Positions 19,100 through 60,369 of a stretch of DNA of 64,000 bases are shown one piece after another; position 1 is the stretch's first letter; every line of letters begins with the position of its first letter. This DNA comes from an uncultured virus (IMG/VR IMGVR_UViG_3300032050_000027) (taxonomy: Duplodnaviria > Heunggongvirae > Uroviricota > Caudoviricetes). Location of the stretch: IMG/VR virus record IMGVR_UViG_3300032050_000027. One strand, written 5' to 3'. A program made the position numbers and the translations under genes. The notes below the pieces were generated by a model. It worked only from the letters and a program-made list of their open reading frames with translations. It was not told the origin of the DNA and did not search any database.

Positions 19100-20497
19100 A
19101 TGCAACAATTTTTTTACGACGAACAGATACGCAGATTCTTACTGCAATTCACTAGAATCTTTTCGGGGTTCCAAATTGAGTATGGCAGAGAAGAAGGCAG
19201 CGAGAATGCGGCCTTGCTTAGAGTTCCAATCAGATATGGTGATTCAAGTAGAAACGCACAAACCATATTGCAGGACAACTCACGCAACAGCTTGCCGTCA
19301 ACTCCGTTGATGACATTTTACATCACTGCACTAGATTATGATAGACCCAGAATCCAAGAGCCTTACCATGTGAGTAAGGTTTCTGTACGTCAACGCACCT
19401 ACGATACCAGCACTGAAACTTACGAAACCACTCAAGGCAATGCATTTACCATTGAACGCCTGATGCCTGTTCCGTACAAGCTGACTTTGAATTTAGATTT
19501 GTGGACTTCAAATACCAATCAAAAATTGCAATTGCTTGAGCAAATTCTAACGCTGTTCAACCCCAGTTTGGAAATTCAAAGCACAGACAATTACATTGAC
19601 TGGACTTCATTGAGTGTGGTAGAACTAGATGGCACCACTTGGACGTCTAGAACTATCCCCATGGGTGCAGAAAATCCCATAGATATATGCACACTGAGAT
19701 TCACATTGCCAATCTGGATCAGTTCACCTGCCAAAGTTAAAAAATTGGGTGTGGTGGAAAGAGTTATTGCCAGTGTGTTTGATGCACAAGGCGATGCTGT
19801 TGATGCTATCACAAACAATGATTTGTTGTTGGGTACTAGACAAGTGATCACACCCTACAACTATGCCACAGTGTTGATTGGCAACAAAATACAAATTTTG
19901 CGACCTCCAAGTTCTGTAGAAGAACCCAGCAACAGCAGTCTTACTCCAACTAACATTGTAGGCAACAGCAACTTGTTGTGGCCAGCAGTTATTGATGCAT
20001 ACGGTGTTCTGCGGCCCGGAATAAGTCAAATTTATTTAGAACAACCAGATGGGTCTGAGGTTGTTGGTACCATTGCCCTTGACCCAAATGATGATCGATT
20101 TGTGTTGTATGATATAGACATTGACACTGCGCCACAAAACACACTGGATGCAATTGACGCTGTGATTAACCCACAAGCAAGTGGCCCGTTAAACGGATTA
20201 GACAGTGCGCTAGAAGGGCAAAGATATTTGCTTACCGAAAGCACAGGATCTGCTGGCAATTCAGGACCTGCTGAGGCCTGGATAGGAGCCAATGGCAGGC
20301 CACTTGTTGCCGAAGCCAATGATGTAATTGAGTACTCAAACAACTACTGGCGTGTGGTTTTTAGAGCCAATGGACAACCTGCTGGCCAGTATGTGACCAA
20401 CATAACCACCAGTCAACAGTATATGTGGACTGGTGACGCATGGATGAAAAGTTATCAAGGATACTACCCGGGAGGCCAATGGAGACTGGTGCTGTAA
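19100..20497 (+). CDS. gp15: Tail sheath stabilizer/terminator (gp15-like) with C-terminal extension
   Basis: FFYDEQIRRFLLQF..F..RVPIRYG..PVPYKL...L..W..QLLEQILTLFNP. Confidence 0.85.
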   Translation: MQQFFYDEQIRRFLLQFTRIFSGFQIEYGREEGSENAALLRVPIRYGDSSRNAQTILQDNSRNSLPSTPLMTFYITALDYDRPRIQEPYHVSKVSVRQRTYDTSTETYETTQGNAFTIERLMPVPYKLTLNLDLWTSNTNQKLQLLEQILTLFNPSLEIQSTDNYIDWTSLSVVELDGTTWTSRTIPMGAENPIDICTLRFTLPIWISSPAKVKKLGVVERVIASVFDAQGDAVDAITNNDLLLGTRQVITPYNYATVLIGNKIQILRPPSSVEEPSNSSLTPTNIVGNSNLLWPAVIDAYGVLRPGISQIYLEQPDGSEVVGTIALDPNDDRFVLYDIDIDTAPQNTLDAIDAVINPQASGPLNGLDSALEGQRYLLTESTGSAGNSGPAEAWIGANGRPLVAEANDVIEYSNNYWRVVFRANGQPAGQYVTNITTSQQYMWTGDAWMKSYQGYYPGGQWRLVL

Positions 20498-20919
20498 AAG
20501 CTGTGGGTGTTTGGTTTAGAGCCAGCAACACTGGCCGTTATCTTTATTTGTTGCGCAACGATTCAAAACATCCAGGTGCATGGGGATTGCCGGGGGGCAA
20601 AGTGGAAACTGGCGAAACTCTACTGGGTGGTATGGAACGCGAATGCATTGAAGAACTGGGAAGTTTTCCTGTTTACCAACGCCTGGTTCCTTTGGAAAAA
20701 TTCACATCAGCAGATTTAAACTTTGAATATCACACCTGGGTATGTGTGGTTGCTGAAGAATTTCAACCCACACTAAATCACGAACACTTAGGATATGCAT
20801 GGATAGACAAAGGCACCTGGCCCAAGCCCATGCATCCAGGCTTGTGGTCAACTGTGAATATTGTAGCAATTCAGGACAAGATAGACATTGTTGAACGCTA
20901 TCTTGCCACTGAACATTAA
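20479..20919 (+). CDS. Nudix hydrolase
   Basis: Nudix box GGKVETGETLLGGMERECIEELG; start 20479 preferred to 20440 because it overlaps gp15 less. Confidence 0.88.
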   Translation: METGAVKAVGVWFRASNTGRYLYLLRNDSKHPGAWGLPGGKVETGETLLGGMERECIEELGSFPVYQRLVPLEKFTSADLNFEYHTWVCVVAEEFQPTLNHEHLGYAWIDKGTWPKPMHPGLWSTVNIVAIQDKIDIVERYLATEH

Positions 20920-40293: not shown

Positions 40294-41079
40294 TTAAGAA
40301 GTAACGTTGTCAACAATGGCCAAGTCAAGCAGATTTTGTTGTCCGCTTTGTACTGTGCCTGAGTTTGCTGCACCAGTGGTACCTGATTTGATAACTGTAC
40401 CTTCGTCTGTAAAGAAGTTGGTTGCATAACGCTTGTCAGCCACAACGCTGGCAGGGTCATAGTTTGCGCCGCCAGTCCAATCCAACAAGAACTTGTTGGT
40501 CAATTTGGAGATAGTAGTAGCAGTAGAATCAGTAACTGTAAATGTGATAGCCATCAATCCAGCTGCTGGAGTAGTGTCATCGGCCAGTACACAAACACCC
40601 ACTGAGAATGCTGCGCCGTTGCCAGATCCACCAACAGAAGTTGCTGTGAAAATTGTGCCTAATCCAAAGTTACTAGGAGCACCGGCTGCGGTCCAGTTAG
40701 TTGTTGTTCCAACAACACTAATTTGATATGCTTGCCCAACTACAAAACTGCCGTCGTTAACGCCATTGGCATCACCAACTAGGTATTTGTGTGAACCTTT
40801 TTGACGGATAATATATCCATTAGCAACGCCAATACCGCTGCCGTCAGGGGCTGCAATGTTCACAATTACGTCAATTCTAGGATTGGTTGCCGAAGGCGTA
40901 TCAGTGGGGGCTGCACCACCCACCACGCCAAGATATTCAGTAGCACTGAGTGTGTCGCCTGTGTTGGTCACAGGGGCAGTTAATGATCCAAAATTTGGAA
41001 AGCCAATGTCAACGCTAACGGCTGCGCCGCCGTTGCCTGAACCAGTGCTTGTTTTTTGTATTTTAAGAGGACGTCCCAT
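40294..41079 (-). CDS. Virion structural protein (possible head decoration)
   Basis: MGRPLK N-terminus, GYIIRQKGSHKYLV; strong SD AAGGAG; own late promoter; near gp23. Confidence 0.55.
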   Translation of the reverse strand: MGRPLKIQKTSTGSGNGGAAVSVDIGFPNFGSLTAPVTNTGDTLSATEYLGVVGGAAPTDTPSATNPRIDVIVNIAAPDGSGIGVANGYIIRQKGSHKYLVGDANGVNDGSFVVGQAYQISVVGTTTNWTAAGAPSNFGLGTIFTATSVGGSGNGAAFSVGVCVLADDTTPAAGLMAITFTVTDSTATTISKLTNKFLLDWTGGANYDPASVVADKRYATNFFTDEGTVIKSGTTGAANSGTVQSGQQNLLDLAIVDNVTS

Positions 41080-41102
41080 TTTTGTTTCTCCTTACAGAAG
41101 TC

Positions 41103-41152
41103 CGATGCGAGTTCTAGTCGCTACGCGGCGGGTTAAACCGCATAAAACACCG
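41103..41152 (-). ncRNA. Candidate cis-regulatory three-way-junction RNA in a 5' UTR
   Basis: P1 CGGU/AUCG, P2 AUGCGG/CCGCGU, P3 GCGA-CUAGAAC-UCGC; lies between late promoter and SD. Confidence 0.5.
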
Positions 41153-41159
41153 TATTGTG

Positions 41160-41188
41160 TTGACAAGTATTTATGGAAATGTTAGAAT
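41160..41188 (+). promoter_or_regulatory. Sigma70-type promoter for the TPR-glycosyltransferase
   Basis: TTGACA-17 nt-TAGAAT with TG extended -10; spacer contains the divergent late promoter. Confidence 0.65.
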
Positions 41189-53067: not shown

Positions 53068-53230
53068 CAACGCAATTAGATCAAACAGTTTAAGATTGGC
53101 TTGGTTAATGCGCGGCGGACTCACCTACGATCAGGTGTTGGCACTAAGTTTCACTGAAAGAAAAATGATCAGCAAGATAGCCGAAGAAAACATGGAAACC
53201 ACCAACAAAACTAAACTGCCGTATTTCTAA
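53000..53230 (+). CDS. gp51-like segment in the -1 frame of the gp26-like gene (not in ORF track)
   Basis: 76 open codons RSRLLILPVEEIGEYIDSLDQEANAIRSNSLRLAWLMRGGLTYDQVLALSFTERKMISKIAEENMETTNKTKLPYF*; TAATG-coupled to the next gene. Confidence 0.75.
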   Translation, partial: RSRLLILPVEEIGEYIDSLDQEANAIRSNSLRLAWLMRGGLTYDQVLALSFTERKMISKIAEENMETTNKTKLPYF

Positions 53231-53730
53231 TGGACTTAGATACAGTTAAACAAGATATTGAAAACTGGATTGTGAACTTTGTAGAAGTTCCACATCCTGC
53301 TCTTGGAGGCTGGGCTCCTTGTCCATACGCACGCTCAGCACGCATGAAAAAAAGCTACGATGTACATGTTGGCGTAGATCCTTACTTTGATCTTAAAAAT
53401 CGAGCACGATGGGGCATGGGCGATAAGGAAGTTATTATCTATGCTTACGATCCTGTGGAATGGCCATATGAATTGTTCAGTGACAGTTTGAAAAATGCCA
53501 ACAAGGAACATTTGTTACGCAACGATCTACTTGCACTAGAGGATCATCCCGCAGACGTTGAGATGGTGAACGGTGTGTGTATGAATCAAGGCAAGTATGC
53601 TCTAGCTCTAGTGCAAAGTCTCAGCGACTTAAACAACAAAGCCAAACTTATGGCTGAGAAGGGATTCTATCACAACTGGCCAGAAGAGTATCTTGCGGGA
53701 CTGTTTGAACATCGTAAGGATCCAAGATGA
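53230..53730 (+). CDS. Hypothetical protein (DUF1415-like CPYA motif)
   Basis: W...FVE.PHP.LGG.APCPYA; DHP. Confidence 0.55.
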   Translation: MDLDTVKQDIENWIVNFVEVPHPALGGWAPCPYARSARMKKSYDVHVGVDPYFDLKNRARWGMGDKEVIIYAYDPVEWPYELFSDSLKNANKEHLLRNDLLALEDHPADVEMVNGVCMNQGKYALALVQSLSDLNNKAKLMAEKGFYHNWPEEYLAGLFEHRKDPR

Positions 53731-54161
53731 GCTATCAGTTTGCCAGAATCGATCTCAGCCAGACCAACTACACACCAAATGTAAAGTGGGAGTATTTGCG
53801 TGAGCCCAACATCAAACAGCTAAACTCTATCTACAGAGACTATTGCAAATACAAACATTTTGCAAGTGTGATGCCTATATTTGACTGTCGTTACACAGAC
53901 CCAATGACAGATGTAATAGGATATTACGATCAAAATCGATTGGTTGCATTCAGTTTGATCCGACGCTATGATGATCATAACGCACTGTGCGATCAATTTG
54001 CATGGAACTACAACAATCCTAAACTACGGTTGGGAATTGAAACAATGAAAACAGAGTGTGCTATCTACAAGGAACGAGGATTCCAATACTTGTATCTTGA
54101 GCAAGCACACCTATACAAATCCAACATGGACGGATTTGAAATACTAGGACCACTGGAGTAA
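53727..54161 (+). CDS. GNAT-fold protein resembling the arginyl-tRNA-protein transferase (ATE/Bpt) C-terminal domain
   Basis: YYDQNRLVAFS..FAWNY..PKLRLG..E..Y..GFQYLYL..YK. Confidence 0.55.
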   Translation: MSYQFARIDLSQTNYTPNVKWEYLREPNIKQLNSIYRDYCKYKHFASVMPIFDCRYTDPMTDVIGYYDQNRLVAFSLIRRYDDHNALCDQFAWNYNNPKLRLGIETMKTECAIYKERGFQYLYLEQAHLYKSNMDGFEILGPLE

Positions 54162-54163
54162 CT

Positions 54164-54499
54164 ATGGATTTATATACAATTTGGGCAGACAAAGAAGGCG
54201 ACATCTCAGACTTAGACTGGGTCAACGGAATGAAAAGTTTCTTTGATCATTTGATATCAGAAGACAAGATGGTAGACTATCGTATCACAAGATGCAAGAT
54301 GGGATTCCGTTCAATTGCGGACATGCCTGAATGGATGATTATCATGGAGTTCCGAGACATGGGTCAAATGGACTCGGCTTTCAAACGAGTAGCACCGCTT
54401 GAGGGTGAACTTGAAGTCAAACACAAGTCATTCAATCAATTTGTGTCAGGCAATATTCAACATGCTTTATTTAGAGACTGGCCAGACACATTTGTATGA
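54164..54499 (+). CDS. Hypothetical dimeric alpha/beta-barrel-like protein (DUF6614-like)
   Basis: YTIW..FFDHL..YRITRCKMGF..EWMIIMEF..QMDSAF..H..FRDWPD. Confidence 0.5.
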   Translation: MDLYTIWADKEGDISDLDWVNGMKSFFDHLISEDKMVDYRITRCKMGFRSIADMPEWMIIMEFRDMGQMDSAFKRVAPLEGELEVKHKSFNQFVSGNIQHALFRDWPDTFV

Positions 54500-55020
54500 A
54501 CATCCTCGATCATGTACCTGTAGTACCTGATTGGCCCAAACCAGGTATTAACTTTTTTGACGTAACTGGCATTCTTGCCAATCCAGAAGCATTTGATTAC
54601 TGCTGTGGATGGTTAAAGCATCAAGCACATTGGTATAATGCTTCCAGTCTTGTGGCTGTGGAAAGCCGTGGCTTTGTGTTTGCGGCACCTGTAGCAAGAC
54701 AATTAGGACTTCCACTAATCCTAGTACGTAAACGTGGCAAATTGCCCGGCCCCACAATACAACACAGCTATCAAACTGAATACAGCACTGATACCATTGA
54801 AATGCACCCACACGCTCCAGTAGGCGCACATCCATTGATTGTGGATGACTTGCTAGCCACTGGAGGCACTATAATGGCCACAGCAAATCTAATTCGCAGT
54901 CATTGGATTGACACTAAAATTTCTGCTGCTGTGATTATAAACTTGCAGAACTTGCCTGGAGGGACAGCATTGACTCGGCACAATATTATGTGGGAAGGAA
55001 TGGTCAATGTTGATGAATGA
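54496..55020 (+). CDS. apt: Adenine phosphoribosyltransferase
   Basis: PDWPKPGINFFD, ESRGF, RKRGKLPG, EYS, IVDDLLATGGT. Confidence 0.93.
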   Translation: MNILDHVPVVPDWPKPGINFFDVTGILANPEAFDYCCGWLKHQAHWYNASSLVAVESRGFVFAAPVARQLGLPLILVRKRGKLPGPTIQHSYQTEYSTDTIEMHPHAPVGAHPLIVDDLLATGGTIMATANLIRSHWIDTKISAAVIINLQNLPGGTALTRHNIMWEGMVNVDE

Positions 55021-55549
55021 TATTATTTTAATAGCTATTCGAGCAGAAGCACCAGATCTCAGCCACATGATGAACTTGTTTTACACTGGTGTGGGCAAGG
55101 TTAACGCTGCCATCACTGCCAGTGAAGTTATCACAAAGTATCGTCCCCGGCGTATCATTAACTTTGGCACAGCTGGTGGTATAACAGTCGCACCAGGATT
55201 CTATCAATGCACTCAGTTTGTGCAAAGAGACATGACTTGTGAAGCATTAGGGTGTACCCCAGGACAAACACCTTTTGAAACTAGCACACACATTGGCAAC
55301 TCTACTGGCTTAACTTGCAGTACTGGTGACAACTTTGTGATGAATCCCATACTACAAATACCAGCAGATGTTGTAGACATGGAAGCCTATGCCATTGCCA
55401 AAGCATGCGAGAAATATGGAGTTGAGTTTGTGTGTTGGAAATACATCAGCGATCAAGCCAACCAACACGCACACAATGATTGGCAACAACAAGTTGCTCA
55501 AGGACAATCACATTATGTCAACAAACTCAAAGAGTTAAACTTATTATAA
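55013..55549 (+). CDS. mtnN: MTA/SAH nucleosidase-like (PNP_UDP_1 family)
   Basis: GVGKVNAA, INFGTAGG, STGDNFV, VDMEAYAIA, KYISD; alternative start 55007. Confidence 0.85.
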   Translation: MNDIILIAIRAEAPDLSHMMNLFYTGVGKVNAAITASEVITKYRPRRIINFGTAGGITVAPGFYQCTQFVQRDMTCEALGCTPGQTPFETSTHIGNSTGLTCSTGDNFVMNPILQIPADVVDMEAYAIAKACEKYGVEFVCWKYISDQANQHAHNDWQQQVAQGQSHYVNKLKELNLL

Positions 55550-55619
55550 GACTTGCTACGCAAGTCTATTAACTTCGCTTGCGCTCGTTAATTGATTGAT
55601 TTTCAAGAGCGAAGCGATT

Positions 55620-56007
55620 AAGTATTCATGTAGATAGATCTAGTCAGACGGAACCGTTTTGCGCGGTTCCGCTGTTGTCTTCATGTGAGTATCACTAGCC
55701 AAGACATTGGAAGTAGGTAATTTATTATACACCGTATGCTAAAGGACTCTGTGCTTTTCCTTCCTACCACGATACACATATTTCTACGTGCTCTAAACCT
55801 CGTTCCTAGTGTTTAGATTTTTATAGCCGGTGTTCTCGTATGCTAACATTCATACTATATCAATGCGTCGGCCCTATTGTTCTAGCCTCAGACTCACTTC
55901 CAATTTTTCAGGATAGTCAGATTTACTGACGGGAGTGCCTCAATATGTCACGTGTCCGGTTATTCCCCGGTTTTTCCACAGCGGTATTACAAACTGGCCC
56001 GCCAACC
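55620..56007 (-). ncRNA. Candidate large structured non-coding RNA
   Basis: No ORF of 60 aa or more; at least 10 short stems, including CACGUA-GAAA-UAUGUG and CGGAACCG/CGGUUCCG. Confidence 0.5.
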
Positions 56008-56274
56008 TTAAGTGTTAGGTAAAATATAACCTTTTGGAATCCAATTAACAAATTTTCCACCGCAAGTGTTGCAAACTATTTTGCCTGCATGCGGTCCGGT
56101 AGGTTTGTTGACTATTTCCCATTCATGATTTTCGTGTATGCCTAATTGTTGCCTGAGTTTTTTTCGTTGTTCGTGCCATGCTTTATCAAATCCTGTCTTT
56201 GGATTAGTCCAATACGGATCATTCAAAAAGCCAGTGTCGCTTTTGTTAGTTTTACTGTAGTCAAGTTTAGTCAT
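56008..56274 (-). CDS. Small protein with a zinc-ribbon-like motif
   Basis: H..PHAGKIVCNTCGGKFVNW; coupled to the GIY-YIG gene. Confidence 0.6.
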   Translation of the reverse strand: MTKLDYSKTNKSDTGFLNDPYWTNPKTGFDKAWHEQRKKLRQQLGIHENHEWEIVNKPTGPHAGKIVCNTCGGKFVNWIPKGYILPNT

Positions 56275-56699
56275 AATTTTCCTACGATGTGTGAGCCATG
56301 CACACGAACTTGAATATGGCCGTTATAATAATCTGTTGATTCCAATACTTTTCTTGTGAACTGTTCTCTTGCTTCAATGTACGAACATTCTGATTTTGAT
56401 TTACAATAGTAAAGTATTTCTCTGGTAAAGTTTTCGGTGCCTAAAGTGATTACGTCTGCGGTTAATTCTGGGCTTGACCCGTAGTACTCTCTCCAATCTG
56501 AATCAATCTTTGATCGTATCTTCTTCCGCTTCTTTGTGCCGTTCTTTTGTTTGACTATTTTGTATGTTGTTTTGCTAAATTTTGCTAATTTTTTGCCTAT
56601 GTACTTGCGTCCAGATAGATTATTTGTGATTAGATAAACAAAACCTACACATTCTTCGGGCAGAGTCTCAACTGGGGTGTCTTGATGTAGCCATGTCAT
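56271..56699 (-). CDS. GIY-YIG endonuclease (single-domain, EndoII/Seg-like)
   Basis: GFVYLITNNLSGRKYIGKK..SDWREYYGSS..FTREIL..E..YYN. Confidence 0.85.
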   Translation of the reverse strand: MTWLHQDTPVETLPEECVGFVYLITNNLSGRKYIGKKLAKFSKTTYKIVKQKNGTKKRKKIRSKIDSDWREYYGSSPELTADVITLGTENFTREILYYCKSKSECSYIEAREQFTRKVLESTDYYNGHIQVRVHGSHIVGKL

Positions 56700-56732
56700 G
56701 TGCGTTTAGTGGGTTTGCCTTTCGTGTTATAG

Positions 56733-57323
56733 TTATGATTTATGATCAAAGTTTACGTAAAAAGTTGCCTCTTCTATCACTGTGTTTGGACCAACAGAGA
56801 TAGCGTATGTTATAAAATTGCTAATATCTTTTAAATTAATGCCGTTTCCTGTCCAGGTGGGCCGTCCACGACTTAGTTCTGTGTCCAAGCGATCAGGTGT
56901 GATTAGCGTGGTTCTGAACTGCACCAGATTTTGTTTGAATGACTGGGTGCCCTGCCTGCTGGCATGTGCCAGTGCCGCCTTGGCCACGCGGTACGTTTCA
57001 AATCTAGGCTCAGCAGCAACAATATGATGCTCGCCCACTGATCCAATATTAAAGATGTGCCCACTTTTGCCAGCGTTTTTCCACTTGTCGTATACTGCCA
57101 TGTACAAGTTTGTTTGTGCAAAGTTGGCCCAGGCTTCTTGTGGTGGCCCATCAAATGCATTGTTTACAAACACATCATAATTCAAACTTTGTTGAGCAAT
57201 CAATTTGACTGCTTGGTCATCAGTGATATCCAAGTTTGTGGATCTGCTGACACTGTCAGCACCAAACACATCCACTAGGTGTTGCCCCAGTCCTCGGTTA
57301 CCGCCTGTAACTAACATTTTCAT
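56733..57323 (-). CDS. Short-chain dehydrogenase/reductase
   Basis: TGGNRGLG, FVNNA, NIGS, YRVAK; start at ATGA overlap with SD GGAGG. Confidence 0.88.
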   Translation of the reverse strand: MKMLVTGGNRGLGQHLVDVFGADSVSRSTNLDITDDQAVKLIAQQSLNYDVFVNNAFDGPPQEAWANFAQTNLYMAVYDKWKNAGKSGHIFNIGSVGEHHIVAAEPRFETYRVAKAALAHASRQGTQSFKQNLVQFRTTLITPDRLDTELSRGRPTWTGNGINLKDISNFITYAISVGPNTVIEEATFYVNFDHKS

Positions 57324-58408
57324 CTTTTGCTTCCTCCTTGATCCCAAACTTTTGTAAATTTTTCACCGCATGTCATAGCACATTCAAACAATCGATCACG
57401 AGTAAACGATTCAACTAAATCACTCCACATGGGATTTTCAAAAACACCTTCGAGGCTATTGTTATGAATGTTGAGATTATCTAATCCGTAACACAACAAA
57501 AAGTCTCGTACTTGATTGCGACCACCGGGCTGACTTAATGCATTTGCTCCTGGCATTGATCCATCATAAAATCTTGCATCATACAAATTGTGATTGAAAA
57601 AGTTGCATGGTAATACAACACCTTCGGCGTTGATAGCTACTTTGCGTCCTTGCAAGGCATCACATTTGATAGTAGTAGTAGCAAAGTAGTTCTGTTGCTT
57701 TTTTAACTCAGGTAAAAATGTCATACTGCGATTCTTGTACTGTGCATCACTAGGTGGTTCAAGTACATAGTCACTTTTGGCCACTGGCCACACAGGCATC
57801 TCTTCCAGGGTGGTGTGATTCAAAAATCTACCAGTGTTTCGAATTAGTATGTTAAAAAATTTCATACTGCTGGCCAGTTGTTTGGCCTGCTCAACTTGGT
57901 GCTCGTTGTGTTTGAATACAATATAGTTCCATTGTGCTCGTCCTCCAGCATTTATAAACGCAGCGGCGTTTTCAATAACTTTGTTGTATTTTACATTTTT
58001 TCTATACAAATGTAAAGTATCTTCTAGTCCGTCAATACCAAAGTCAATTTGTCCGTAGCCGTTCATGATACTAGAAACTTCTGCCCAGTAATCAGGATCG
58101 TGTACTCCGCCATTGGTATGGAAGTATAACCAAAGTGTAGGAGCTTTCTTTCTAAAGTCACGTAGTATGTCTAAAAAGTCTGGATGCATGATGGGATCGC
58201 CATAACTGCCGCAAAAGAATACTTGACGTAATCTACTGCACAATTCTTCAGAGAATGCACGGTCAATTACTTCACGTGATAAGTGTGTTAACGGCATGTA
58301 AGGATTGATACCATGTCCGTTGAGGTTGCGAGGACACTGGGGACAGGCAGCATTACAATAGCTGGTGATCTCTATCTGATACTCGTCAATAGTTTTATAA
58401 TCAAACAT
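57320..58408 (-). CDS. Radical SAM protein with SPASM/twitch domain
   Basis: CNAACPQC, GSYGDP, TNGG, IDG, C..INAEGVVLPC..CAMTC. Confidence 0.9.
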   Translation of the reverse strand: MFDYKTIDEYQIEITSYCNAACPQCPRNLNGHGINPYMPLTHLSREVIDRAFSEELCSRLRQVFFCGSYGDPIMHPDFLDILRDFRKKAPTLWLYFHTNGGVHDPDYWAEVSSIMNGYGQIDFGIDGLEDTLHLYRKNVKYNKVIENAAAFINAGGRAQWNYIVFKHNEHQVEQAKQLASSMKFFNILIRNTGRFLNHTTLEEMPVWPVAKSDYVLEPPSDAQYKNRSMTFLPELKKQQNYFATTTIKCDALQGRKVAINAEGVVLPCNFFNHNLYDARFYDGSMPGANALSQPGGRNQVRDFLLCYGLDNLNIHNNSLEGVFENPMWSDLVESFTRDRLFECAMTCGEKFTKVWDQGGSKR

Positions 58409-58895
58409 TTATTTTAAAAAAGTCCAAAGTGTCTTTGAGTATGTCATTGCCACTGCGATCCAGTGTTTGTTCTGGACTCACGCCTGCAGGATTGATTGTT
58501 TTAATAATCCAATTCAATACTGGCGCATCAAAATTCAAAATCCATGTACCGTTGTTGCCCAACCAATGACATGGCGTAATGCACTCCAAACTGTAATCTG
58601 GGTACCAACGTCCTTGATGCGTTAGCATGCAATGTTCATGATGATCTAAATCTACTCCGTCGACCACAATAGATTTTAATTCAATATGACGATCATGTTC
58701 GGCATTCTGATGTTTCCAGGCATGCTTACCAAAGTGTTCTATAGTCAATGTGTGAGTACCTGGCACTAACTCTGTGTTCACAACAATTTGTTTTTTCACT
58801 GTGTCTTGATACAAGCATTGTTGATCAATAAAAATTTTGACTGTAGGGATACCAAAATAATCATCGTAATCAAACTCAAACAAAAATTCAGACAT
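58401..58895 (-). CDS. Hypothetical protein of the radical SAM operon
   Basis: 164 aa, overlaps both neighbours; LGNNGTWILNFDAP. Confidence 0.6.
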   Translation of the reverse strand: MSEFLFEFDYDDYFGIPTVKIFIDQQCLYQDTVKKQIVVNTELVPGTHTLTIEHFGKHAWKHQNAEHDRHIELKSIVVDGVDLDHHEHCMLTHQGRWYPDYSLECITPCHWLGNNGTWILNFDAPVLNWIIKTINPAGVSPEQTLDRSGNDILKDTLDFFKINV

Positions 58896-60369
58896 TGGCC
58901 AACTCCGTAAGATATCGATCTTTGATAATACTCAAGTGATCATCACCTTTCCAGATAGTATATCCCAGATCTTCGGCCAACTTGTGCAGTTCAATGCGTC
59001 GACGCACACGTTCTGCATAGTCAAGTTCAGGTGTTGTGGTACAAATCCAATTGATGCCTTTGGCGGTGTCGCCCTTGATTGGAACAATGTTAAATTTTGC
59101 AGGATTATCAAACATAGGTGTTCCTTGTTCTACTGTCAATCCTGTGCCTAAGTTGCATCCAATAATAGTTCCTAGTGCAACATATTTCTGCCAGCGTCGT
59201 AGCAAGTTCTTGGTCTCTTCAAAGTCGGTTTGTGTTTCATTTGGAAACCCTACCAGCAACAACAAGAAGAATTTCATTTTGTACTTGCTGAACTGCTGTA
59301 TGTTAAACTCAAGATCTGCGTTTGAAAATCCCTTGTTCATGATGTTTCGCAAACGTTCGCTACCAGTCTCAACTCCAGTTTCAAACATTTCTCCTCCGGC
59401 ACGACTTAGCAGTTCAAAATTGTGCTCTTTGAATTGAGTTTCACTTCGCACAATCCAATAACCACTGAATGTAAAGAATCTGTCAGGTAAATTGTTTTGT
59501 TGATAAAACTCAATGATGCAGTTCAAAAATAGTTTAAAATCTTTGACGCTGCCGTTCATCAACGCATCGTTAAAATAAAAGTTACGCACACCATACTGTT
59601 GGTAATAGCCAATCATTTCATTAGCTAGTACCTTTCCGTTTTTGTATCTATATCCTCCAGCATGTGTGGGGATGTCACAAAACGCACAGCTTCTAACACA
59701 TCCACGACTGCTTTCAATTGGCAATACCCCGCCGGGGTAGGCAGTTACATATTGTTCTATTGCAAAGTCACTATAATCTGCGATGTTGTTAGTATCAAGA
59801 TCAACATCATTGACCAACACATCACTGTCTAATCCAGGTACATTGCTACCAGTTAAAAAATTGTAAAAACTGTTTTCAGCTTCTCCAGCAATCCAATGAT
59901 CAATTAGTCCTTGATTTTTTAACTTGTGTGCAAAATGCATCTTGGTACTAAAGCTACCGTTTTGTTCATTGATAAGACCTTGTCCGCCTACAATGATTGT
60001 GCCTGTAAAATTTTTACGCAACAATGGAAAAAAGTCAAGACAAAATCGTTGACTTTCCCAACTGAATACACTTACTGCAATGATCTTGCAATCAAAAGCC
60101 ATTAATTTTTCAACCCATGCTTGCAACCAACTAGAGTAAGTTGTTTTCTCCTCAGGCAACAGATTTTTGTTCCATTGTATCCAATATTGATCAATGGCAT
60201 TGGCAGTTGACGGATTAGAAGATTTAAAATTTTGATAAAAGTCCAAATTAATATCAAAAACTTTTGAAGTAACGCCCGCACGATTGCAAATTGATTTGAG
60301 TATGCCACAGGCACTTTGAGGCCGAGTGGCACTCAAACGTGGTATACTTAAAATCAAAACATCAGTCAT
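58888..60369 (-). CDS. B12-binding-domain radical SAM protein
   Basis: IIVGG..GEAE, SSRGCVRSCAFC, FNDALMNG, GVETGS, LVGFPNET. Confidence 0.88.
   Translation of the reverse strand: MTDVLILSIPRLSATRPQSACGILKSICNRAGVTSKVFDINLDFYQNFKSSNPSTANAIDQYWIQWNKNLLPEEKTTYSSWLQAWVEKLMAFDCKIIAVSVFSWESQRFCLDFFPLLRKNFTGTIIVGGQGLINEQNGSFSTKMHFAHKLKNQGLIDHWIAGEAENSFYNFLTGSNVPGLDSDVLVNDVDLDTNNIADYSDFAIEQYVTAYPGGVLPIESSRGCVRSCAFCDIPTHAGGYRYKNGKVLANEMIGYYQQYGVRNFYFNDALMNGSVKDFKLFLNCIIEFYQQNNLPDRFFTFSGYWIVRSETQFKEHNFELLSRAGGEMFETGVETGSERLRNIMNKGFSNADLEFNIQQFSKYKMKFFLLLLVGFPNETQTDFEETKNLLRRWQKYVALGTIIGCNLGTGLTVEQGTPMFDNPAKFNIVPIKGDTAKGINWICTTTPELDYAERVRRRIELHKLAEDLGYTIWKGDDHLSIIKDRYLTELANV

Follow-up and report, generated by a model that had tools for sequence, protein, structure and literature searches.

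A pseudoknotted RNA with twin seven-base repeats in T4-like giant phages and small tailed phages, and its possible role as a replication primer

The stretch of DNA analysed here (64,000 nucleotides of an uncultured virus, hereafter the window) is a piece of a T4-like giant phage, with PHROG matches to tail sheath, portal, prohead protease, major head, gp46 and gp47 proteins and with the late sigma factor (gp55) encoded just before gp47. A genome of 364,404 bp with terminal repeats (G001) has a nuclease gene and an RNA identical to those of the window. As the initial annotation had stated, the gap considered here is the largest non-coding one; it spans 55550-56007 (458 nt) and ranks first among the gaps between ATG ORFs of at least 70 aa in the window. 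It is located 3' of two minus-strand genes. These are a 142-aa SegE-type GIY-YIG nuclease gene (56271..56699; PF19835, E 1.4e-32; phrog_447), which is a usual, dispensable neighbour, and the gene for an 88-aa His/Cys protein (56008..56274), which is optional, has 53 homologues, is found only with the RNA class described below as class A, and has no Pfam or PHROG match and only atlas hits below 0.9. On the other side, the gap faces a convergent nucleosidase-family gene (55007..55549, plus strand; PF01048), a variable neighbour outside the element, as the downstream gene differs between loci. The search for tRNA and tmRNA returned none, and the scan for sigma-70 promoters and terminators gave matches at chance level only.

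Some features of the surrounding genes were also observed. Positions 53230-55549 (plus strand) hold a variable cassette of DUF6875-like, ATE_C-like, DUF6614, phosphoribosyltransferase and nucleosidase genes, and between gp46 and the nuclease there is an insertion (56733-60369, minus strand) of two radical SAM genes and a short-chain dehydrogenase gene. The GIY-YIG family phrog_447 carries the label 'NAD synthetase' in PHROGs and in many phage records, which conflicts with the Pfam match.

The minus strand of the gap carries, with high confidence, a structured RNA. Its core (class A, ~396 nt, 55622..56017, with putative ends), which at its 5' edge overlaps the final codons of the 88-aa gene, has about 20 helices and at least four crossing pairings, as supported by covariation among 52 distinct class A homologues, which were collected by DNA patterns and are 61-100% alike (mean 78%). 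In most of 80 loci fetched through the nuclease, a gene-free stretch of ~400 nt is kept 3' of the nuclease, and the next gene varies. The folding energy is modest (z -2.08 for the minus strand, -0.64 for the plus strand), and 11 of the 52 homologues gave z from -1.3 to -3.2 in sense versus 0.1 to -2.1 in antisense. The covariation check suggested in the initial annotation bears out the fold, with 97.2% of 1828 cells paired and 38 of 99 pairs changed on both sides among 19 aligned sequences, the 99-pair structure having been derived from the 52 homologues and counted on 19 of them. The 38 both-sided changes compare with 24.9 in shuffles (0 of 500 as high) and with 3-6 when the partners are slid, a control which is lenient because the structure was fitted to the same sequences. 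The preference of G-U pairs for the minus strand, already remarked on from the sequence, is confirmed by 210 G-U versus 38 A-C on that strand.

Among the individual stems drawn in the initial annotation, compensatory events on the 52-sequence tree support P1 (56002-55999/55984-55981; 7 events), CCGG/CCGG (15), GUCAG/CUGAC (27), UCUAAAC/GUUUAGA (22), the CACGU hairpin (30), GUAGG/CCUAC (6) and AAGGA/UCCUU (6). The GUAUG/CAUAC and CGGAACCG/CGGUUCCG stems are kept with hardly any change. The GGCCG/CGGCU (71% paired), GUGA/UCAC (63% paired) and UGUCUU/AAGACA (80% paired, 0 compensatory events, 27 breaks) stems are unsupported and the proposed GNRA loop is not conserved among homologues. The repeat CGTATGCTAA is indeed present at 55733 and 55837; however, its copies are identical in 13 of the 52 homologues only, which corresponds to chance. 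The repeat that matters, the ACATGAA pair, was missed.

The 5' domain P1-P7 (55838..56017, minus strand) is exchanged among RNA classes. The RNA 5' end (56017-56013) pairs with the P7 loop (55848-55844; 100% paired, 1 compensatory event), and the P1 loop (55998-55994) could pair with 55702-55698 (92% paired, no compensatory event). In the central knot (55709..55832, minus strand), P8 (55832-55824/55741-55730; 12 compensatory events) crosses P12 (55767-55763/55717-55713; 6 events), and the loop of P13 (55762-55758/55746-55742) pairs back with 55772-55768, with 6 events for P13 and 12 for the loop pairing. P9 has 22 compensatory events, and its loop (55806-55803) may pair with 55712-55709 (TTCC), a pairing which, being invariant, is a predicted one. 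Hairpin P14 (55649..55671, minus strand), located between the two repeats described below, is 93% paired and has an equivalent in every class. Contigs of four metatranscriptome runs contain the RNA at low depth, like the neighbouring genes, and are uninformative on strand, ends and level; part of the stretch is present in 20 of the 23 listed runs and half of it in none.

The initial annotation could assign the RNA to no known class, and the gap has no Rfam match either at gathering or at E <= 10, the window otherwise having at this E-value only freshwater-2 and a chance microRNA match (E 4.9). The freshwater-2 motif (41077-41162, minus strand, 68.6 bits) is directly 5' of a 261-aa gene and is the sole Rfam match in the window at gathering. 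Likewise, blastn of the gap against 50,697 phage records gave none. The novelty that had been claimed is to be qualified, as sister RNAs at the same place, 3' of the same nuclease, match RF01718 (Polynucleobacter-1) in 15 of 20 loci with 75-122 bits, whereas 0 of 20 class A-like loci match RF01718 at its threshold of 37 bits. Class C, which corresponds to the RF01718-matching RNAs, and class B differ from class A in the 5' domain, and the class A profiles gave no cross-match to classes B or C. The three classes have a common 3' module of ACTC, 7-mer, hairpin, TGAC, ATCT and the same 7-mer, which was parsed in 72 of the 80 loci (6 cut short, 2 unparsed), with identical 7-mers in 69; of the three non-identical modules, one is a mis-parse. 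Some marine sequences have a B-like 5' end joined to an A core.

As judged from its site and 3' architecture, the window's RNA is a sister class of the RF01718 RNAs and not a member; these share the 3' twin-repeat module with it, but the RF01718 model consists of only 141 nt of the exchangeable 5' domain and leaves it unmatched. In our reading, classes A, B and C are one superfamily with exchangeable front ends, and Rfam covers 141 nt of one of them. The Polynucleobacter-1 motif was tabulated as a possible cis-regulator (Weinberg et al. 2010, PMC2864571); in the literature searched, it was found by name only in that paper, whose supplement may describe the motif further, and no paper was found on this RNA element or on the small phages described below. 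A scan of bacterial genomes gave seven matches, of which two distinct ones are real, both in metagenome-assembled genomes and one of them beside a nuclease gene; these are probably binned phage. A group I/II intron or a known small ribozyme was considered and rejected, as no Rfam core matches and the element sits between whole genes.

The twin repeats of the window are ACATGAA at 55680..55686 (copy 1) and at 55625..55631 (copy 2), both on the minus strand. Copy 1 is likely a single-stranded grip, and the template-strand complement of copy 2 its predicted landing site. In a first set of 256 distinct modules, anchored on the hairpins and from which five matches were dropped (four cut, one chance), the 7-mers are identical in 254, corresponding to 46/46, 88/89 and 120/121 per class, whereas within-class shuffles reached no more than 28, 35 and 35. 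They are ~55 nt apart, the spacing ranging from 47 to 65 nt among modules, and they changed 10+26+40 times in the three classes on trees built from the upstream part, counts which whole-module recombination may inflate. A difference confined to the repeat was seen in just 1 of 239 module groups. A second set, which partly overlaps the first (247 loci, 244 parsed, 189 distinct, 8 under the profile cut-off excluded) and in which copy 1 is constrained by the search pattern, has identical 7-mers in 179 of 181 modules.

A Watson-Crick complement of the repeat on the RNA strand was found in 2 of the 256 modules only, and no third copy or complement occurs at a fixed place within the loci. That the two copies stay identical through joint changes, while the RNA offers neither of them a partner, suggests pairing of one copy with the DNA complement of the other. 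The mismatches just 3' of the repeats, at position +9, agree with this, with U/C (copy 1/copy 2) outnumbering C/U by 39 to 2 (10 versus 2 origins) in the first set and by 41 to 0 (8 versus 0 origins) in the second, a bias in the direction that pairing of RNA copy 1 with the copy 2 template would produce. The opposing evidence is that the invariant positions -1 and -3 would fit the reverse direction better, and that the wobble pattern is weak in the freshwater set that includes the window, with many mismatches at +8 and +9; at +8, the 46 members include 18 with G/T, 14 with G/G and 9 with G/A, and the window itself is mismatched there. A reading of the repeats as kink-turn or box C/D elements was discarded, since several repeat variants break the required GA pair.

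The GIY-YIG gene is upstream of the RNA in 63 of 63 class C, 60 of 62 class B and 29 of 47 class A loci (those found by RNA pattern with 1.1 kb of upstream sequence), and in the second set it is upstream in 79 of 95, downstream in 2 and not found in 14. A partnership with the nuclease had been suggested; an obligate one is not supported, as 18 of the 47 RNA-found class A loci lack an upstream GIY-YIG gene, and neither is one with the 88-aa protein, its gene being present in 18 of 47 class A loci and in 0 of 125 class B or C loci. In two of the small phages described below (G006 and G007), the GIY-YIG gene is downstream of the RNA, with 55-60% identity, and in three others (G008, G009 and G012) it was not found. 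Moreover, the nuclease family is present in 462 phage records where the RNA has no match, and nucleases that are 96% identical accompany RNAs of different class and repeat. Given the strong linkage, the nuclease may still have a processing role. An RNA-guided nuclease system of the OMEGA or HEARO type was rejected, because the linkage of RNA and nuclease is not obligate and there is no variable 15-20 nt guide at an RNA end, only a 7-nt self-matching repeat that co-varies.

Upstream of the nuclease gene, a late-promoter-like box (ATAACTATA, 56728..56736, minus strand) is the likely source of a transcript comprising nuclease and RNA. By eye it is of late type and not a MotA promoter. A relaxed form of this motif, chosen after inspecting the sequences, is present in 65 of 68 intervals upstream in the giants, against 8 in antisense and 1 in control intervals. 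The box (A/C)TAAATA, which we take to resemble the T4 late consensus, is found 5' of 24 of 408 and 27 of 397 giant-phage ORFs (2.2-2.4 expected, 7-9 in antisense), and in loci without an upstream nuclease it lies 43-65 nt 5' of the RNA itself in 16 of 18 cases, versus 0 of 24 other loci. On the 3' side, the RNA is followed by an A+T-rich tail (55550..55617, minus strand) with small GC-capped hairpins (55617-55607, 55586-55573 and 55566-55550). The first 60 nt of the tails are 65% A+T, GCGNNAGC occurs 142 times in sense versus 2 in antisense in 249 tails, and the tail is also kept in small phages whose next gene is not convergent. This tail is a candidate for an unwinding or loading region, or for a terminator.

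Of the 18 class A loci that have no nuclease upstream, eight could be assigned to records, with an RNA identity of 78-86%. These are small phages, two of them with terminal repeats (G006, 31,125 bp, and G009, 28,909 bp), two 98-100% complete (G007 and G008) and four further ones 71-86% complete. They are siphovirus-like, the complete genomes measuring 29-31 kb, with head, portal, terminase, tail, methylase, glycosyltransferase and HNH or GIY-YIG genes, and their head and terminase systems are unrelated to those of the giants, with which they have the RNA in common at ~80% identity. No replication protein, sigma factor or integrase was found in PHROG and Pfam scans of 51 + 27 ORFs of G006/G009 and of 44 selected ORFs of G007, G008, G012 and G013, in which many ORFs were unmatched. 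A genome-wide search, covering five families only, found polymerase B, DnaB helicase, a 5'-3' exonuclease (RNase H type) and gp55 in 4/4 giants and 0/8 small phages, and gp32 in 2/4 giants and 0/8 small phages. The (A/C)TAAATA box precedes the scaffold gene in G006, G007, G008, G009 and G012, whereas in the cultured Pelagibacter phage HTVC111P, whose capsid protein is 47% identical and which has a DnaD-domain gene, no box is present before the scaffold gene. The small phages thus have no recognisable counterpart of these functions of the giants, yet carry the giants' late-promoter motif and RNA, and from their gene content they look like tailed satellites using the late transcription and replisome of a giant.

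Further observations concern these small genomes. Their T4-type late boxes are mostly on the coding strand (8/2, 13/1, 9/2 and 7/3). In five of six, a conserved Cys-rich gene of 157-176 aa is located just upstream of the RNA promoter (L517:10976-11452, minus strand, and homologues); its protein has no family, atlas hits below 0.9 and one CxxC only in common with the 88-aa protein, and it is a candidate partner or hidden initiator. The tape measures have a stretch of 30-70 aa with 44-62% identity to a 1158-aa protein of G001 at ~267.7 kb, and an 80-aa small-phage protein matches G001 at 171.7 kb. A related lake phage of 29.8 kb, DSL-LC06 (OR003941; L779), has no annotated replication gene and a late box before its scaffold gene. 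Its 750-nt gap (572-1328) has ATCAGTC twice around a hairpin, with a weak profile match (E 0.12) to the 121Q-type element.

This last element comes from cultured phages. By gp55, the nearest cultured giants are PA5oct-like and 121Q-like phages, and the gap at the syntenic position in 121Q has 293 matching places in 72 records. The 121Q genome (NC_025447) has four copies of the element on one strand, at ~90.3, 192.8, 247.5 and 326.6 kb, while the four freshwater giants have one RNA copy per genome, no extra copies being found by profile or descriptor. In 12 aligned 121Q-type copies, the core resembles the B/C knot by eye and twin repeats are present around a hairpin, these being CGTCAA or CGTCAG in 11 rows and CTTCAAG in RaK2; no GIY-YIG gene is annotated beside the 121Q element. 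As the profile of the cultured-phage element gave 0 matches among 241 freshwater RNAs, homology between the two is suggested by site and build. No clear twin module was seen in the PA5oct and Phosso gaps, and none of the four PA5oct ncRNAs is at the syntenic site by the table coordinates (PMC7318152).

Here it is proposed that the element is a cis-acting R-loop primer origin, similar in function to those of ColE1 and T4 and borrowed by tailed satellites, a reading toward which the evidence leans, if slightly. Of the three roles put forward in the initial annotation, the origin transcript is the one that fares best. The RNA would be made by RNA polymerase with the phage late sigma factor, or by readthrough from the gp55-gp47-gp46 operon. 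Its knots would hold copy 1 unpaired beside the polymerase, where it would capture the template strand of copy 2 leaving the transcription bubble, and the captured hybrid would nucleate an R-loop extending into the A+T-rich tail. The phage polymerase would then be primed by the 3' end of the RNA, which the phage RNase H may have trimmed, and the displaced strand would load helicase and primase. The small phages would be satellites carrying the element so as to be copied by the giant's replisome. That they keep the RNA while lacking recognisable replication genes is an argument for cis action at an origin, and cis action is also favoured since an RNA acting in trans and supplied by the helper need not be kept by a satellite. 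Against the primer reading, 7 base pairs would make a short hybrid unless a protein assists, a late promoter would be an unusual choice to drive the first round of replication, an unrecognised initiator among the unannotated ORFs of the small phages is possible, and the GC skew of four giant and four small genomes follows gene direction, with no turn at the element.

Other functions may be considered for the same features. The pairing of copy 1 with the template could instead pause, release or move the polymerase, as a cis signal of transcription or maturation that marks a site for packaging or concatemer processing. This is unlikely, even though it needs the same cis action and repeat pairing, suits the late-promoter motif upstream, and agrees with the polymerase hybrid being 7-9 bp in size and with packaging in T4 and T7 being coupled to late transcription. 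The RNA is ~80% identical across unrelated head and terminase systems, and since the small phages own a terminase, a shared packaging signal is unlikely; the giants' RNA ends an operon facing a convergent one, so antitermination would be useless, and the small phages would be left without any origin candidate. The strong linkage to a GIY-YIG gene upstream, or downstream in G006 and G007, and the nested pseudoknots, which are typical of ribozymes, would suit an RNA-directed DNA nick, in which copy 1 guides the RNA to its own gene over 7 bases, the cut being made there by the GIY-YIG nuclease or by the RNA itself for rolling-circle or recombination-dependent replication. Such a nick is nevertheless quite unlikely, given the absence of a GIY-YIG gene among the finds in G008, G009 and G012 and in the annotation beside the 121Q element (although a helper could supply the nuclease in trans), the 462 records with the nuclease family but no RNA match, and the 96% identical nucleases with RNAs of different class and repeat.

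The repeats could also be twin sites, of the kink-turn or box C/D kind, for a dimeric protein or a target in trans, the RNA being a scaffold or trans-acting. A TGA-like word precedes each repeat in an approximately two-fold arrangement, and RNA contigs are present in metatranscriptomes; however, this too is quite improbable, because the repeats switch as a whole between close relatives, with intermediate forms almost absent, and several variants have lost the GA that a kink-turn needs. The asymmetry of the wobble mismatches is what base pairing would give, the small phages, poor in genes as they are, keep the RNA as expected for action in cis, and the contigs do not show the very high abundance typical of stand-alone phage RNAs. 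It is hardly credible that the RNA serves as a reverse-transcriptase template, with cDNA jumping between the repeats, presumably as in the DRT2-like family: direct repeats do flank a hairpin, and a cDNA jump from copy 2 to copy 1 would give the same wobble direction, but none of 12 genomes, of which 8 are at least 90% complete, has an RVT_1 match.

Returning to the primer reading, its closest functional parallels are ColE1 and T4. As described in PMC5043065, ColE1 RNA II is a long folded transcript with no encoded initiator, which forms a persistent cis hybrid dependent on RNA structure. The window's element is likewise a folded transcript, with no recognised initiator in the small phages and with a predicted cis hybrid; however, ColE1 is a plasmid, while the element belongs to phages, has ~400 nt and several pseudoknots, and likely uses the phage replisome where ColE1 uses host Pol I. 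It also has variable 7-base repeats 47-65 nt apart in place of the G-rich tract of ColE1. The likeness to ColE1 is functional only, as no Rfam match to RNA II or RNA I was found in the gap. In T4, oriF and oriG prime from R-loops, and oriC may need a late promoter, according to PMC3016281. The element would resemble oriF and oriG in the phage's own replisome, in the order of a putative promoter, transcript and A+T-rich region, and in several origins per genome, 121Q having four copies of the similarly built element. In that account (PMC3016281), the T4 R-loops are driven from MotA middle promoters and require no particular sequence or fold, whereas the element has a fold and repeats under strong selection and a late-type box upstream. 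By these comparisons, it appears to be a member of neither ColE1 RNA II, T4 oriF/oriG nor RF01718, and would work most like the first two.

Phage satellites such as P4, PICIs, PLEs and tailed satellites have small genomes dependent on a larger phage. The small phages are like them in an apparent reliance on the transcription and replication proteins of a larger phage, but differ in having a full head, tail and terminase set, in having no recognisable initiator or integrase, and in having an RNA element in common with the presumed helper. Put more broadly, and with rather less than even confidence, a widespread family of giant T4-like phages may start replication with a ribozyme-sized RNA of several pseudoknots whose 7-base template grip is reprogrammable, and a lineage of fully tailed 30-kb satellites, which would have shed every replication gene and the sigma factor, may hijack it through the RNA and the helper's late promoter. 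If true, this would give a function to an RNA family part-catalogued in 2010 and unexplained in the literature found, and would provide a large group of giant phages with a candidate origin. Folded RNA primers are known from ColE1, and their phage counterpart, a knotted primer whose 7-base grip can be swapped, would be of a new kind, amounting to a compact programmable R-loop device. The small genomes would point to tailed satellites of T4-like giants, a class previously undescribed.

The cultured E. coli phages 121Q and PBECO4 have a similarly built element at the syntenic site, so that the idea is testable there. In 121Q the element measures 500-600 nt and is unannotated, some genomes having short spurious ORFs annotated over it. 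In Sinorhizobium phage Phosso (L778), the syntenic site is a gene-free gap of 1 kb (19560-20573), which is immediately followed by an RNase HI gene.
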